A stretch of 58,653 bases of DNA from a bacterium (GTDB lineage Bacteria; Eisenbacteria; RBG-16-71-46): assembly GCA_043779265.1 (NCBI GenBank), contig JAYWEM010000159.1, forward strand, positions 1 through 58,653, in the 5' to 3' direction. The notes under the pieces are model-generated. The model ran no database searches. It had not been told where the DNA came from and saw only the letters and a list, made by a program, of their open reading frames with translations. Positions within the stretch are counted from its first letter, which is position 1. Every line of letters begins with the position of its first letter. Below, piece after piece: positions 44,687 through 50,605 of the stretch. Made by a program: the position numbers and the translations under genes.

Positions 44687-45787
44687 GTGCGCACAGACGT
44701 CGTCCAACGCCCCTCAGAACCCGAGACGCCCGAACGGCCCGCCCCGGGCCCGGCGCTCGTCCTCGATGCGCTCGAGGAGGGGGTCATCGCCTTCGATCGC
44801 GAGCGTCGCGTCGCTTACGCCAATCGGCGGATAGAGGAGTTGATGAGCGTCGAGCCGGGCGCACTGCACGGGCTGCCGGGGAATCGCGTGTTCCCGGGCG
44901 CCGAGGCGCGCTGGCTGCGCGGCACGATCCGTGAAACGCGCGAGTTCCGCATCGAGACCGAAGGGCGAGACCTGACCTTGCGCGCCGAGTCGTTGCCGAT
45001 CCGCGACGAGGAAGGTGAAGTCGTGGGCTCGGTCGTACTGGCGGACGCCATCTCCGAGACCGAGGATGGCGAGTTCCAGAAGAAGATCGACCGCCTCGTC
45101 TCGCTCGGCGAGCTCTCGGCCTACGTCGCCCACGAGATCCGCAATCCGCTCACCGGCATCCGCACGACCGTCCAGTTCGTCGCCTCGCGCTTCAAGCCGC
45201 GCGATCCGCGCCGCGAGGACCTCGACGATGTGCTGCAGGAGCTGGACCGCATCGAGCAGATCATCACCGGACTCCTTCTGTTCGCGCGGCCGCCCCAGGC
45301 CAAGCCGCAGCTGTGCGGGCTCCACCCGGTGCTCGAACGCACGCTCGACCTGCTGGGGCCCCAGTGCGAGGACGCCCAGGTCACCGTCACGCGCGAGTTC
45401 GCCGAGGAGCTGCCGCTGGTCTACGCCGACCCCGACCTCATGCAGCAGGTGTTCCTCAACCTCTGCCTCAACGCCATCCAGGCGATGCCCGAGGGCGGCG
45501 CGCTCACGATCACGACCGGCGTGCGCCGCTATCGGACGCGCCGCTCGCTCGTCGACGTCTCGATCCGCGACAGCGGGCTCGGCATCCCGCGCGACCTGAT
45601 GGAGAAGATCTTCGACCCGTTCTTCACGACACGTTCGATGGGCACGGGTCTCGGGCTGCCGATCTCCTCGCAGATCCTCCGCGATTCGGGTGGAGTCATC
45701 ACCGCCAAGAACAACTCGGGGGGCGGGGCCACGCTGCGCGTGTCGCTGCCGATGCCGGCCGAATCCTCGAGCCGGTCCGAGGAGTGA
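44687..45787 (+). CDS. Cytoplasmic PAS-domain sensor histidine kinase (NtrB-like)
   Basis: PAS start LDALEEGVIAFD...YAN, H-box AHEIRNPL, QVFLNL..NA, DSGLGI, FDPFFTT and GTGLGL. No TM segment. Confidence 0.92.
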   Translation: MRTDVVQRPSEPETPERPAPGPALVLDALEEGVIAFDRERRVAYANRRIEELMSVEPGALHGLPGNRVFPGAEARWLRGTIRETREFRIETEGRDLTLRAESLPIRDEEGEVVGSVVLADAISETEDGEFQKKIDRLVSLGELSAYVAHEIRNPLTGIRTTVQFVASRFKPRDPRREDLDDVLQELDRIEQIITGLLLFARPPQAKPQLCGLHPVLERTLDLLGPQCEDAQVTVTREFAEELPLVYADPDLMQQVFLNLCLNAIQAMPEGGALTITTGVRRYRTRRSLVDVSIRDSGLGIPRDLMEKIFDPFFTTRSMGTGLGLPISSQILRDSGGVITAKNNSGGGATLRVSLPMPAESSSRSEE

Positions 45788-47184
45788 GCGTGAAGACCAC
45801 GGTCCTCGTCGTCGACGACGAGCTGCTCATCCGCAAGTCGCTCGGGAAAGTGCTGCGCGCACGCGGCTACACGGTCGATCTCGCCTCCAATGGCCGAGAA
45901 GGACTCGAGAAGGTCCGCGAACTCAGGCCCCAGGTCATGATCCTCGACATGCGCCTGCCGGACACCGATGGCCTCTCGGTCCTTCAGCAGGCTCGAGCCC
46001 TCGATCCGCTCCTGCAGGTCATCATCATCACGGCCTATGGCGACGTTCAGACCGCGGTCGACGCCATGAAGCATGGAGCCTGCGACTTCGTCCGCAAGCC
46101 CTACGAGCTCGAGGACATCGCGCTCGCCGTCGAGTCGGCCCAGCGGCATTTCAAGCAGGCGAATGAGCTCGACCTCTACCGGCGGCGTGCCTGGCAGCAC
46201 GACACGGGGGAGGAGATCATCGGGAGGTCCGAGCCCATGCAGGAGGTCCGGCGCCTCATCGACAAGGTCGTGAGGAGCAAAGCGACCTCGGTGCTGATCA
46301 CAGGTGAGTCGGGAACCGGCAAGGAACTGGTCGCTCGCGCCATCCATTACCGCAGCGATCGGGCCCAGGCGCCGCTGATGGAGGTGAACTGCTCCTCGTT
46401 CCAGGAGAGCCTGCTCGAGAACGAGCTGTTCGGTCACGAGAAGGGCGCGTTCACGGACGCGACCGACACCAAGAAGGGGCTGGTGGAGCTGTGCGACGGT
46501 GGCACGCTGTTCCTCGACGAGGTCGCGGACATGCCCCTGCCGACGCAGGCCAAGCTGTTGCGGTTCATCGATCACCGCAATTTCAAGCGAGTTGGCGGCG
46601 CGCATGACATCAGCGTCGACATCCGCATCGTCGCGGCCACGAACAAGCACGTCGAGGAGGAGGTCCGCTCGGGGCGTTTCCGCGGCGACCTGTTCTTCCG
46701 CCTGAAGGTCGTGGGCATCGAGCTGCCGGCACTTCGCGAACGCGGCGAGGACGTGTTGTCGATCGCCCGGCACTTCGTCGAGGAGTTCGCGCACAAGTTC
46801 CAGAAGGACTTCGCCGACATCTCGCCCGAGGCCGAGCGATTGATGCTCGACTACAGTTGGCCGGGCAACGTGCGTGAGCTGAGGAATTTGATCGAGCGCG
46901 TCGTGCTGCTCGAGGAGGGCGATGTGATCGAGCCCGACCTCCTGCCACCCGAACTGCTCGGCCGCCGAGGCCAGCCCGCACTCCTGGGGGTGTCACCCAT
47001 GCGCGACGCGCTCACGCTGCCGACGCTCGCGCAGATCGAGGCGGACCACATCAGCGAAGTGCTGCGACGCACCGCGGGGAATAAATCGCGCGCAGCGCGC
47101 ATCCTCGGCATCTCGAGGCAGGGACTCATCGAGAAGGTGCGACGCATGCGCATCGAAGAGGCGGAAGAACGTCCAGTCTCTTGA
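45784..47184 (+). CDS. Sigma54-dependent response regulator (REC, AAA+, Fis-type HTH)
   Basis: [46 protein letters not shown] and [18 protein letters not shown]-coupled (alternative GTG at 45790). Confidence 0.95.
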
Positions 47185-47276
47185 CAGTGTCCATGAAACA
47201 GACACTGAGTCGCATCATGTTCGCGTGCAATGACTTGCGATGAGGCGAGCGCGTAAGAGTCCAGTTAATGGACACT
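47171..47276. promoter_or_regulatory. Three GTCCA-N7-GACA dyad sites (candidate enhancer/UAS)
   Basis: GTCCAGTCTCTTGACA (47171-47186), GTCCATGAAACAGACA (47189-47204) and GTCCAGTTAATGGACA (47259-47274), each followed by GT or CT. Confidence 0.65.
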
Positions 47277-47397
47277 TAGCTCGGGTCGAACAAGTCGATC
47301 ACGGACAGTTGAGAGCCCGGTGCGAACCCATCGCATCGGGCTCTTCTCGTTGTGCGACAAGAGGTTGAGTGGTTCGTAGTCGCGCCGCTCACTCGAG

Positions 47398-47413
47398 TGG
47401 CACGGTCCGTGCA
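47398..47413 (+). promoter_or_regulatory. Sigma54 (-24/-12) promoter
   Basis: TGGCACGGTCCGTGCA versus consensus TGGCACG-N4-TTGCW: exact GG-N10-GC spacing and one mismatch. Confidence 0.8.
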
Positions 47414-47503
47414 CGTATAGGTCTGCGAGGCGCGAAGCGCGCGCCGATGAATTTGGATCTTTGCTGAGGCACTACGTCCAGCTTGGAGGAGGTGATCTCT
47501 ACC

Positions 47504-47572
47504 ATGGCTGCCAAGAAGAAGGCTGCGAAGAAGAAGGTCACGAAGAAGAAGGCCGCGAAGAAGAAGAAGTAA
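47504..47572 (+). CDS. 22-aa lysine-rich micropeptide MAAKKKAAKKKVTKKKAAKKKK (histone H1-tail-like)
   Basis: ATG...TAA preceded by GGAGGAGGTGATC, which carries an 11-nt match to the canonical anti-SD. Own sigma54 promoter upstream and hairpin downstream. Too short for the ORF track. Confidence 0.85.
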   Translation: MAAKKKAAKKKVTKKKAAKKKK

Positions 47573-47597
47573 CCGGTTCTCTGGACCTGGCACGTCC

Positions 47598-47641
47598 TGA
47601 AGGGCGGGTCGGCTCACGCCGGCTCGCCCTTCATCCATTTT
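47598..47641 (+). terminator. Terminator-like hairpin after the micropeptide
   Basis: TGAAGGGCGGGTCGGC-TCAC-GCCGGCTCGCCCTTCA (16 bp, two G-U pairs) followed by TCCATTTT. Confidence 0.65.
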
Positions 47642-47827
47642 CGATTCACGAAGTCTGCGTTCCGATCGAGGGGAATCGCGCTCATGGATCGAGCTGCGAC
47701 CTTCGGTCCTGCGCGGCGACCCGCGCACGGAGGCCCGGGTCGCCCGCGCTCTTGCCGATGCCGACGCGCGGCGCGAGGATGCCGAGGACCCGCATCCCCC
47801 AGTTCCCACCCGCATCCTCGAGCGCCC

Positions 47828-50605
47828 GTGTCCCCTGATCCCCAGCCTGTCATCCGCATCCGTGGCGCCCGCCAGCACAACCTTCGTGGCTTCGACGTCG
47901 ACATCCCGCGGGGCGGCCTCACGGTGATCACGGGTGTCTCGGGCAGTGGCAAGTCCTCGCTGGCGTTCGACACGCTCTACGCTGAGGGCCAGCGCCGCTA
48001 CGTCGAGTCGGTGTCGACCTACGCCAAGCAGTTCCTCGATCGCCTGCCGCGCCCCGACGTGGACTCGATCACCGGCCTGACCCCGGCCGTGAGCATCCAA
48101 CAGGTGGCGCCGACTCGCAGCGCGCGCTCGACCGTGGGCACGTCGACCGAAGTGCATGACCATCTGCGACTTCTGTTCGCCCGGCTGGGCGTGGTGCACT
48201 GCACCGGCTGCGGGGAGGCCATTCGCGTCGATTCACCCGCGTCGATCGCCGCCGAAGCGATCGCGTGGGAGCCGGGGGCACGCGTGACCGTGCTGGCCCC
48301 GCTGGCGCTCTCGCCCCGCTTCACCTGGGAGCAGCAGGCGGAGCATCTGATGAGTGCGGGCTTTACGCGCATCTGGCTGCAGGGGGAGCCGGTGGCACTC
48401 GAGCCGCTCCCCAAGCTCAAGCGCGGCACCTCGAGCGTGGATCTCGTCGCGGATCGATTCCGCTGGGAGAGCGACGAGGGCACGCGGCTCGCGGAGGCCT
48501 GCGAGCAGGCCTTCCGACGGGGCGATGGCCGACTGCTGCTCGTCGTGGGGGATGGGGCCGAGCCGTCGGCGCGCAGTGAGCGCTGGGCGTGCAACGCCTG
48601 CGGCGTGCCCGCCATGAGACCCGAACCGGCCCTGTTCTCATTCAACAGTCCGCTCGGCGTGTGCCCGGAGTGCCGAGGGTTCGGTGACGTGCTGACGTTC
48701 ACCTTGGACCTCATCGTCCCCGATCGGTCCAAGTCGCTCGAAGCCGGCGCGCTCGATCCGTGGGCGCGCACGTGGCGCAAGACCATGTGGCCGAAACTCC
48801 AGGCCTTCGCCGACGAGCATGGGATCGACGTGCACGCACCGTGGTCACGGCTGAGCGAGGAGCATCGTGGCTGGCTGCTCTCGGGACACGAGAAGTTCCG
48901 CGGCGTGATGGGGTTCCTCGAGCGGCTTCAGAAGAAGAGCTACAAGGCGGGCAATCGCTTCATCATCAAGCGCTACCAGAGTCCCAGGCGCTGCAGTGGC
49001 TGTGGCGGCGCACGCCTGCGGCCCGAGGCGCTCTCGGTGAGACTCGGCAGCCGCACGATCAGCGAGGTCACGGCGATGCCCGTGCGATATGCGCTCGCGT
49101 TCTTCGAGGGGCTCACGCTCGACGATCGCCAGCGCGCGATCGCCGCCACGCCGCTCGGCGAAGTGTGTTCGCGCCTGCGATTCCTGCAGCGGGTCGACCT
49201 CGGCTATCTGACCCTGGATCGCCCGATGCGGACGCTGTCCGGAGGCGAGGCGCAACGCATCGAACTCGCGAACGCACTGGGCGCCGATCTGGCCGACACG
49301 CTCTACGTGCTCGATGAGCCGACGGTGGGGTTGCACCCGAGGGACACCGACACGCTGCTCGGCATCCTGCGTGAGTTGGCGTCGCGCGGGAACACGCTCG
49401 TCGTGGTGGAGCACGAGCCGTTGGTGATCCGAGCGGCGACGCACCTGATCGACCTCGGTCCGGGTGCGGGTCGCATGGGAGGCGAGTTGCTGTACGCCGG
49501 GCCCGCGGCCGCGCTGGCCCAGGTGAAGGGCTCGGTGACCGGCGACTATCTGACGGGCCGACGCGAGGTGAGCCGCGAGCGGCGCGAGGGCGAGCCCGAG
49601 GGATTCGTGACCGTGGAGGGGGCGACCCACCACAACCTGCAGAATGTGACGGCGCGCTTCCCACTCGGCCGCATGACGGCGGTGACCGGCGTCTCGGGCT
49701 CGGGCAAGTCGAGCCTCGTCGAGGATGTGCTCGTGCGAGTGGCGCTGCGCCACTTCGAGGGCCGCGAGGATGAGCCGGTCGGCGCCCACCGCGCCGTCCA
49801 CGGGCTCGAAGCGCTGAAGCGCGTGGTGCTGGTCGACCAGTCGCCGATCGGCCGCACTCCGAGGAGCTGCCCGGTCACCTACATGGGTGCCTACGCCGCG
49901 CTTCGCGAGGCGTTCGCCCGGCAGCCGGCCGCGATGGCGCGCGGGCTCAAGGACGGGGCGTTCTCGTTCAACACCGAGGGTGGCCGCTGTGAACACTGCC
50001 AGGGCGCGGGCTGGGTGAGCGTCGAGATGTACTTCCTCGCCGACCTCAGCGTTCCGTGCGAGGTGTGCATGGGCTCTCGCTTCCGCCCCGAGGTGCTCGA
50101 GGTGCGCTACCGCGGCAAGGACATTCGCGACGTGCTCGCGATGTCGGTGGACGAGGCGTTCGAGCACTTCGCCCAGGAGCCCCGATTCACGCGCGCGCTC
50201 CACGTGCTGCGCCGCGTCGGCTTGGGCTACCTGCACCTCGGGCAGCCCGCGAATCAGTTGTCGGGCGGTGAGGCGCAGCGACTGAAGGTGGCGCGCGAGT
50301 TGGGTGAGCGCAGCGGCGGCCCCGCGCTCTACGTGTTGGACGAGCCCACCGTCGGCTTGCACTGGGCCGATGTGCAGCGGCTTCTCGAAGTGCTCGATGA
50401 TCTGGTGCGGCGCGGGGATACCGTCGTGCTGGTGGAGCACAATCTCGATGTCATCCGCAATTGCGACTGGTTGGTGGATCTGGGCCCCGAGGGTGGCGAA
50501 GGGGGAGGCCGACTGTTGGCCGAGGGTCCGCCCGAGACGATCGCCGCCTGCGAGCCCTCACAAACCGGTCGTTACCTGAGGTCGGCAGCCGGCGTGAAGC
50601 GATGA
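47828..50605 (+). CDS. uvrA: Excinuclease ABC subunit A (possibly a second paralog)
   Basis: GARQHNL, two GVSGSGKSS Walker A motifs, EGQRRYVES, FSFNS, CxxC zinc fingers, LSGGEAQR twice and LDEPT twice. GTG start. Confidence 0.95.
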   Translation: MSPDPQPVIRIRGARQHNLRGFDVDIPRGGLTVITGVSGSGKSSLAFDTLYAEGQRRYVESVSTYAKQFLDRLPRPDVDSITGLTPAVSIQQVAPTRSARSTVGTSTEVHDHLRLLFARLGVVHCTGCGEAIRVDSPASIAAEAIAWEPGARVTVLAPLALSPRFTWEQQAEHLMSAGFTRIWLQGEPVALEPLPKLKRGTSSVDLVADRFRWESDEGTRLAEACEQAFRRGDGRLLLVVGDGAEPSARSERWACNACGVPAMRPEPALFSFNSPLGVCPECRGFGDVLTFTLDLIVPDRSKSLEAGALDPWARTWRKTMWPKLQAFADEHGIDVHAPWSRLSEEHRGWLLSGHEKFRGVMGFLERLQKKSYKAGNRFIIKRYQSPRRCSGCGGARLRPEALSVRLGSRTISEVTAMPVRYALAFFEGLTLDDRQRAIAATPLGEVCSRLRFLQRVDLGYLTLDRPMRTLSGGEAQRIELANALGADLADTLYVLDEPTVGLHPRDTDTLLGILRELASRGNTLVVVEHEPLVIRAATHLIDLGPGAGRMGGELLYAGPAAALAQVKGSVTGDYLTGRREVSRERREGEPEGFVTVEGATHHNLQNVTARFPLGRMTAVTGVSGSGKSSLVEDVLVRVALRHFEGREDEPVGAHRAVHGLEALKRVVLVDQSPIGRTPRSCPVTYMGAYAALREAFARQPAAMARGLKDGAFSFNTEGGRCEHCQGAGWVSVEMYFLADLSVPCEVCMGSRFRPEVLEVRYRGKDIRDVLAMSVDEAFEHFAQEPRFTRALHVLRRVGLGYLHLGQPANQLSGGEAQRLKVARELGERSGGPALYVLDEPTVGLHWADVQRLLEVLDDLVRRGDTVVLVEHNLDVIRNCDWLVDLGPEGGEGGGRLLAEGPPETIAACEPSQTGRYLRSAAGVKR

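Follow-up and report, generated by a model that had tools for sequence, protein, structure and literature searches.

A lysine-rich micropeptide gene behind a predicted sigma-54 promoter in Candidatus Eisenbacteria, compared with H1- and Hc2-like polycations

The C-terminal tail of linker histone H1 and the tail-only H1 of protists are Lys/Ala-rich, acid-free, disordered polycations; they are eukaryotic, far longer than the peptide described here and act on nucleosome linkers, and the likeness to them is compositional. Chlamydial Hc2 (HctB) condenses DNA, binds RNA and occurs in forms of 165-237 aa that differ by basic pentamers with the frame kept, and the same source describes Bordetella BpH1 and the H1-like proteins of Burkholderiales as Lys-rich pentamer repeats of variable length (available text of PMC2848022). 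Pseudomonas AlgP bears a Lys/Ala repeat tail of H1-like composition (available text of PMC9239181) and differs from the present peptide in that it is a larger protein with KPAA repeats in a 154-aa tail and is tied to polyphosphate granules. The locus examined here shares with Hc2 a make-up of basic pentamers in series, with A, V, T and P as padding, in acid-free peptides, and the variation of length by repeat number, here from 13 to 227 aa with the frame kept; the two part at the promoter, which is a sigma-28 late promoter for Hc2 and a conserved sigma-54-type promoter here. The regulatory genes resemble AtoS/AtoC, ZraS/ZraR, NtrB/NtrC and chlamydial CtcB/CtcC, which likewise consist of a kinase and a receiver-AAA+-HTH activator with an adjoining -24/-12 promoter and upstream palindromes. 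Nevertheless, the Eisenbacteria pair falls under the equivalog cut-offs of all of these (AtoS 276 of 646 bits, AtoC 453 of 714 bits) and, unlike AtoS/AtoC-type systems, the sole target found for it is a lone receiver together with an H1-like gene. No published account of these peptides or of the module was found in the literature covered, which lies mostly outside subscription journals, and small-protein catalogues may list some of them; what is new here is a predicted phylum-wide switch joined to a series of 13-227 aa at one locus.

The locus lies in a stretch of 58,653 nt (the window; contig JAYWEM010000159.1, assembly GCA_043779265.1) from a genome of 3.43 Mb and 68% GC whose assembly is 92% complete. 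The initial annotation had proposed a Lys-rich ORF of 22 codons, and this description is borne out by the sequence: MAAKKKAAKKKVTKKKAAKKKK, read from the window on the + strand between the ATG at 47504 and the end of the TAA at 47572, is laid out as M-AAKKK-AAKKK-VTKKK-AAKKK-K, with 13 Lys among its 22 residues arranged in xxKKK pentads and no acidic residue. The peptide has a mass of 2,442 Da (2,311 Da without Met) and a charge of about +12.5, and its Lys fraction of 0.59 is the highest among the short ORFs of the genome, the runner-up reaching 0.35. All 13 Lys codons are AAG, an exclusiveness that has no weight by itself because AAG is the genome default: its share of the Lys codons is 94.3% over 1,142 background ORFs, which gives P=0.47 for 13 of 13. 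The Ala codons are GCT GCC, GCT GCG and GCC GCG. A GCT share of 25% of Ala codons, compared with 7% over the genome as a whole, hints at high expression. Upstream, the Shine-Dalgarno (SD) sequence AGGAGGTGATC (47487..47497, + strand) is separated from the ATG by a 6 nt spacer. It had been put forward as the strongest ribosome-binding site noticed in the window, and a scan of the 3.43-Mb genome widens that claim, in that it is the sole 11-nt match to the canonical anti-SD ahead of any ATG, with 10 nt matched at four ATGs and 9 nt at 30. The anti-SD complement used was the canonical 12-mer; a primer search of the assembly found no 16S gene. The 22-mer gave no match in Pfam, NCBIfam or PDB, and MAAKKKAAKKKVTKKKAAKKKK is absent as an exact match from a collection of 15 billion proteins.

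That MAAKKKAAKKKVTKKKAAKKKK is a coding ORF is very probable, judging from comparison with relatives in three sets of loci, none of which was selected on the ORF start; the figures are counts and carry no statistics because the genomes are kin and not independent. First, among 60 loci with an exact copy of the 15-mer that follows the gene (loci too close to a contig end being left out), 57 have an intact ORF running from SD and start through a Lys-rich stretch to the stop just 5' of it, and the remaining three are unrelated contexts in the distant families f14 and f15. Second, 120 metagenome loci were chosen by the last three Lys codons, the stop and the 15-mer; seven lie too close to a contig end, and 111 of the 113 alleles judged are intact, two of these with a TTG start. 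The script passed 110 of the 113, including one that is frameshifted near the start, and the broken allele L531 lacks its start region. The 80 contigs listed from this metagenome scan all exceed 1 kb and so are not of transcript size. Third, 21 regions were picked by their kinase, a set that leaves out families f16 (15 genomes) and f18 (2 genomes). Four of them stop at a contig edge before the ORF position, and each of the 17 that reach far enough holds a K/R-rich ORF of 25-227 aa at the syntenic position, three being cut by contig ends and one (L417) appearing frameshifted inside its repeats. The claim that the ORF is coding is thus well supported, given that SD, start, frame and stop are all conserved among relatives and that frame-breaking indels, when sought in close relatives, left just 2 of 113 alleles broken.

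The variation between alleles points the same way. In 17 distinct 22-aa alleles, 1, 5 and 8 of 21 columns vary at codon positions 1, 2 and 3 respectively, 12 of the 13 Lys columns are invariant and the spacers interchange A, G, V and T, and the alternative + frames are open in just 9 and 18 of 81 loci. Selection on the protein had at first been argued from the changing Ala codons of the single copy; that argument is weak taken from one sequence, and it is the comparative data that show such selection. A GGTGA core stands 5-9 nt ahead of the start in 98 of 98 loci, a figure built into the selection pattern. It could be supposed that a non-coding slippage repeat looks like an ORF by chance, given its low complexity and the default use of AAG, and this reading is already largely refuted, with hardly any probability left to it: SD, start and stop are conserved in frame over the phylum, and 116 of the 120 loci listed from a cross-phylum search (below) are in frame even though the search pattern allowed any frame.

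Directly upstream, on the + strand, lie a histidine kinase with PAS, HisKA and HATPase_c domains (44687..45787; Pfam) and an NtrC/AtoC-type sigma-54 enhancer-binding response regulator with receiver, AAA+ and HTH_8 domains (45790..47184; Pfam/NCBIfam). The kinase is without a transmembrane segment (maximum 19-aa hydropathy 1.06), and the activator, whose AAA+ domain scores 222.6 bits, has GAFTDA instead of GAFTGA in its contact loop. Three enhancer sites, to which no strand is assigned, are predicted: site 1 (47170..47186; PWM score 18.8) is the genome's best single site, is conserved in relatives and is a TGTCMA-N5-TKGACA palindrome overlapping the activator stop codon, and it is followed by site 2 (47188..47204; 9.5) and site 3 (47258..47274; 14.7). 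These are followed by the sigma-54-type -24/-12 box TGGCACGGTCCGTGCA (47398..47413, + strand), the position of which is conserved in relatives, with a predicted transcription start near 47424; palindromic activator sites are thus present at about 80-250 bp upstream of the promoter. The box taken alone is not significant, being matched in 25 of 100 shuffles. The enhancer PWM was trained on 176 sites from 77 relatives with the genus of this genome left out, and the total for the three sites of this promoter is 43.0; over all 425 sigma-54-like sites scored the median is 4.1 with an sd of 5.5, and the next-best site reaches 20.8. At held-out loci the pre-promoter region outscores every control window in 14 of 15 cases.

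A strict sigma-54 box stands upstream at a distance of 80-200 nt in 88 of 109 metagenome alleles, and among 85 phylum loci the strict pattern is present in 60 and fails in 25, while inspection by eye of 23 regions shows a -24 box with relaxed -12 variants in every one. The genome contains rpoN and 16 full sigma-54 activators, and because of this number the pairing of the sites with the adjacent activator rests on position and co-conservation; the GAFTDA loop of that activator is a further point against it. Taken together, the predicted sites suggest with good probability that the ORF is controlled from a sigma-54 promoter by the adjacent kinase-activator pair. Apart from this promoter, no strong enhancer target was found in the genome, of which the assembly covers 92%. 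The second-best enhancer-like palindrome (17.8) lies near a contig end (C118:441-457) and marks a possible second target. The peptide had been described as free-standing, a description that calls for correction: its ORF closes a predicted sigma-54 two-component module and, in most other families, would be co-transcribed with a receiver gene.

Within Candidatus Eisenbacteria the module runs in the order kinase, NtrC-type activator, three palindromes, sigma-54 box, lone receiver (where present) and Lys-rich ORF, after which come the conserved GGCACGTCC element, a strong hairpin and usually uvrA; it also occurs on three further records titled Candidatus Eisenbacteria (L283, L291 and L309). A kinase match (E<=1e-55) is present in 191 of 206 genomes of the phylum, including 116 of the 121 good ones, and nearly always as a single copy, and the peptide ORF is itself single-copy in most genomes. 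Loci picked by sequence pattern number 98, of which 96 are closed and one (L056) is probably a paralog, and their ORFs are 13-120 aa long. No acidic residue occurs among the 2,709 residues of the 96 ORFs, a figure that is circular since the loci were chosen for Lys content; gene order in this set is not circular. An activator end or lone receiver lies upstream in 80 of the 85 pattern-picked loci with enough upstream DNA, and uvrA lies downstream in 69 of 85. When the kinase-picked loci are taken in, orthologs at the one syntenic position range from 13 to 227 aa, with some starts uncertain, and the short forms contain 980 Lys to 7 Arg and no invariant non-Lys residue.

In families other than f1, to which the present genome belongs, a lone receiver gene stands between the promoter and the ORF. 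A search of three f1 genomes, this one included, gave no ortholog of this gene, which by this comparison appears lost in f1. Neither of the two 3' patterns is matched in three f1 genomes of 66%, 96% and 54% completeness, and in the 96%-complete one the kinase contig ends before the ORF position. Four genomes of family f13 have a peptide of 17-18 aa before uvrA and give no match to the kinase query. In the window, uvrA occupies 47684..50605 on the + strand, with homology beginning at residue 56-57 of its ORF, and this usual neighbour is probably outside the unit. Further H1-like ORFs or tails at non-syntenic positions were seen in several Eisenbacteria genomes (L046, L037, L060 and L067 among the loci).

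As to function, the explanation favoured, and held with somewhat better than even confidence, is that the peptide is a sigma-54-switched, minimal, unfolded polycation of the H1/Hc2 kind that neutralises and condenses DNA and RNA. The long orthologs of the kinase-picked loci consist of pentamer repeats such as KKKVA, KKKTA and RKKAT, and Pfam HC2 is the best family for seven of eight of them, with E values from 1e-7 to 0.18 that all lie below the cut-off. The best Hc2 scores are 32.7 of 40 bits (PF07382) and 17.6 of 135 bits (NF038052), neither reaching the cut-off. The eighth, L418, has no Pfam match, and of five other long forms three have none and two have insignificant HC2 matches only. BpH1-like NF038053 is the top NCBIfam match for most long orthologs and is matched by seven of the eight, at best with 30.3 bits against a cut-off of 80; BpH1-like proteins are 182-206 aa long, and the 22-mer itself gives no NF038053 match. 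The H1/Hc2-like character first suggested from the composition of the 22-mer is now well supported, since the locus also encodes long orthologs that consist of basic pentamers and match HC2 under the cut-off. The 22-mer thus likely works like Hc2 without being a member of the family by score. Low-complexity basic repeats can match HC2 from composition alone, and shared composition cannot prove descent from Hc2-type proteins. When homologs of a 96-aa ortholog were sought, most of the proteins obtained had a SWIB domain and a basic tail; the peptides searched had no match in PDB, and the neighbours in the ESM Atlas carry no family name, the nearest named clusters being HC2 at 20-23% of members, a weak figure.

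Small basic ribosomal proteins (bS22, bL37, bTHX and eL41) are Arg-rich and of fixed length. In size and charge the peptide is like them, it is encoded once in most genomes, and it could therefore be a ribosome- or RNA-directed factor, such as an accessory ribosomal protein or a translation silencer, and not a nucleoid protein. Hc2 itself offers a precedent for such a role, binding RNA more strongly than Hc1 and repressing translation (available text of PMC2848022). Nevertheless, this is unlikely for several reasons: the forms at one locus span 13-227 aa, without an invariant non-Lys residue and with Arg almost absent from the short forms, and the fixed length, Arg-rich motif and family or PDB match of small ribosomal proteins are all missing; the genome has a separate basic ORF of 31 aa (C195:14993) that we take to resemble bS22; and a dedicated sigma-54 switch would be unexpected for a core ribosomal part. 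That ORF sits just behind an HU/IHF gene (C195:14666-14929).

Sigma-54 control is compatible with a starvation response, which would also suit a peptide that mainly binds polyphosphate or another stored polyanion. AlgP provides the model for this, its KPAA repeat tail localising to polyphosphate granules and spacing them (available text of PMC9239181). A search of the genome, 92% complete, found no PPK1 (PF02503), and this role is considered improbable.

The H1/Hc2-like reading does not account for the near-invariant element behind the stop codon. The predicted RNA is about 210 nt long. It opens with a leader hairpin (GGCGCG/CGCGCC; 47429..47445, + strand) found by sequence folding, which most of the family extends into a longer, covarying stem whose loop is UCGG. 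This stem closes on CTCGGG in 21 of 29 longer f1 leaders, and at eight positions 16-20 of 21 leaders are paired, with several pair types. Beyond this first stem, hardly any consensus emerged when a MAFFT alignment was folded with RNAalifold, and folding z-scores of the leaders are modest (median -1.05; 8 of 29 below -2; -0.2 in this genome); only the first stem of the leader has support. Behind the ORF lies the conserved element GGACCTGGCACGTCC (47583..47597, + strand; core GGC[AG]CGTCC), and behind this a hairpin of 16 bp (47598..47633, + strand) predicted to be a terminator or 3' end protector. The exact 15-mer is present in 84 of 88 f1 genomes and 8 of 10 f3 genomes, and the 9-nt core follows the KK-stop in 83 of 88 f1, 8 of 10 f3, 3 of 3 f2 and 37 of 41 f11 genomes, the f3 tallies taking in one row from G038, the source of the 27-aa allele L052, on which no conclusion rests. 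Among the pattern-picked loci the element accompanies 74 of 81 short forms as against 0 of 15 long forms, a link that is weakened by two kinase-picked long forms that carry it.

Several readings of the element were tried and rejected. Folded into a hairpin it would be weak (-4.2 kcal/mol), with one-sided change only and a 5' arm that can break; as a second sigma-54 promoter it lacks the -12 GC; as an SOS-type box for uvrA it would have to explain a single exact copy in the genome and its retention without uvrA; and against an antisense ORF from its GTG speaks the distance to the stop, which ranges from 6 to 16 nt. Its loop is presumably complementary to the 515 region of 16S rRNA, a pairing that leaves the invariant TCC unexplained. 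Rfam 15 gave nothing at gathering score in positions 47100-47900 of the window, where the matches were sub-threshold only, and at 40 related loci one unrelated tRNA and nothing else.

It is conceivable that the RNA has a dual or regulatory function, exerted by the GGCACGUCC element that precedes the terminal hairpin, and that the ORF is translated mainly in order to protect or present this element. The conservation of the 15-mer and the core over four families and two long forms, the retention of the element in all four short-form loci where uvrA is not the neighbour, the covarying leader stem and the lack of an Rfam match at gathering score all fit such an RNA. The genome, however, shows no outstanding complementary target (33 complements to 11-mers, against a shuffle median of 34), the element is missing behind all 15 pattern-picked long forms, and the peptide composition is kept over a 17-fold change in length, which selection on RNA would not require, and is kept in other phyla despite the choice between AAA and AAG. 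An RNA function as the main role is accordingly judged quite unlikely. Many Lys codons before a terminator-like hairpin might also recall a leader that senses lysine and attenuates the downstream gene, and in one planctomycete (L279:69-140) a Lys-rich ORF lies directly 5' of a PLP-dependent decarboxylase that could be LysA, possibly as a true lysine leader. In the phylum, though, the usual downstream gene is uvrA and no operon for lysine biosynthesis or transport; in other phyla no lysine pathway recurs in 126 flanking frames scanned and many neighbours are on the opposite strand; a leader of 227 aa is no attenuator, and no conserved antiterminator was seen. The attenuator reading thus has very little probability.

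The H1/Hc2-like polycation would come into play as follows. The soluble PAS kinase would sense an internal signal and phosphorylate the activator, which would bind the three palindromes and fire the sigma-54 promoter, and the hairpin-capped RNA, with the strongest SD of the genome, would then yield much peptide. The peptide would bind phosphate backbones without sequence specificity and compact or quiet the nucleoid, a 13-16-mer presumably binding DNA more weakly than Hc2 does. Where the co-transcribed lone receiver is present, it may drain phosphate from the kinase and limit the pulse. A broader proposal is offered tentatively, with the balance somewhat against it: the Eisenbacteria switch would mainly flood the cell with an H1-like polycation, as an inducible switch for nucleoid compaction or dormancy, and the forms of 13-27 residues would be the smallest of a hidden class of chromatin peptides, spread over many bacterial phyla and archaea of the DPANN type, that escapes gene callers as well as tryptic proteomics. 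The predicted tryptic pieces of the peptides are only 1-4 residues long, in agreement with the original remark that trypsin would destroy the peptide, and lists of bacterial nucleoid proteins would miss it because they are built on annotation and tryptic proteomics. An exact look-up in the 15-billion-protein collection found 0 of 15 sequences, including forms of 91-227 aa (among them the 96-227-aa orthologs L416, L418, L424, L419, L237, L238 and L236). This suggests that H1-like repeats are discarded by gene callers or filters even when they are far longer than the usual size limit; the choice of start is another possible cause. The natural series at one locus allows one to ask what minimum length of H1-like tail condenses DNA, and with a kinase, an activator and a promoter of its own the unit lends itself to tests of its regulation in E. 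coli.

Similar peptides were sought beyond the phylum in 185,579 genomes with a pattern that requires GAGG and an ATG, then a Lys-rich start, a gap of any content and a KKK-stop, and about 1,800 stretches are estimated by extrapolation from 5 of 64 parts. Among the 120 matches listed, the in-frame ORFs are of 14-24 aa and 101 of the 120 ORFs have no upstream in-frame ATG; the titles include Acidobacteriota, Alphaproteobacteria, Planctomycetota, Nitrospirota, Bdellovibrionota, Binatia, Chloroflexota, Gemmatimonadales, Methylomirabilota, Woesearchaeota and others, some of which may reflect misbinning. Their 982 pattern-free positions are 55% K, 29% A, 9% T, 0.2% R and 0.4% D. The ratio of AAA to AAG is 153:130 in the 25 listed ORFs below 45% GC and 170:918 in the 95 above, and given that Lys codons track genome GC, this points to selection on the protein. 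Homology and convergence are inseparable here because the neighbours differ by lineage. The look-alike L296 of Bradyrhizobium diazoefficiens places the class in a cultured, genetically tractable organism; 18 of 151 genomes of its family match, and a reversed-pattern control gave 0. A search of the supplements of PMC4842269 (Bradyrhizobium) found the peptide motifs in two unrelated proteins and nowhere else, and the BjsR1-10 probes in the available text of PMC5082802 showed no CTT repeat by eye; the gene may yet coincide with a described sRNA. Among the sequencing runs listed for L296 none is an RNA run that contains it, and contigs spanning the gene in four runs of guessed type are no evidence of transcription. 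At L296:1433-1534, two extra contigs in one run diverge 5' of the ORF, which suggests paralogs or a second strain.

Some further observations concern particular loci. Binatia-type loci (L277, L292, L302, L347, L358, L368 and L387) have a TTGACA-type promoter, and the leader segments GGGAGGG and CGCCTGAG have their complements, CCCTCC and CTCAGGCG, past the stop in crossed order, so that a pseudoknot enclosing the ORF may form. At L277, L292 and L347 a sigma-54 activator gene lies upstream of the Lys-rich ORF. Three Dormiibacterota-like loci titled Eisenbacteria or archaea (L286, L312 and L362) are likely misbinned contigs. Phage matches to the first pattern were considered as free peptides and set aside, being mostly C-terminal tails of longer basic ORFs: the 120 matches listed on viral contigs (L100-L219) are mostly Lys/Ala/Met-rich C-terminal tails of short basic phage ORFs, the tails often overlap the next start, and a few are free-standing (L117, L111 and L216). 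With the SD included in the pattern, many poly-Lys phage ORFs of 15-24 aa were seen (43 loci, L555-L597). Tandem micropeptide genes, in two or three copies each with its own SD, occur at L306:1501-1797, L381, L278 and L295, and L295 has an apparent second start directly behind the first ORF.
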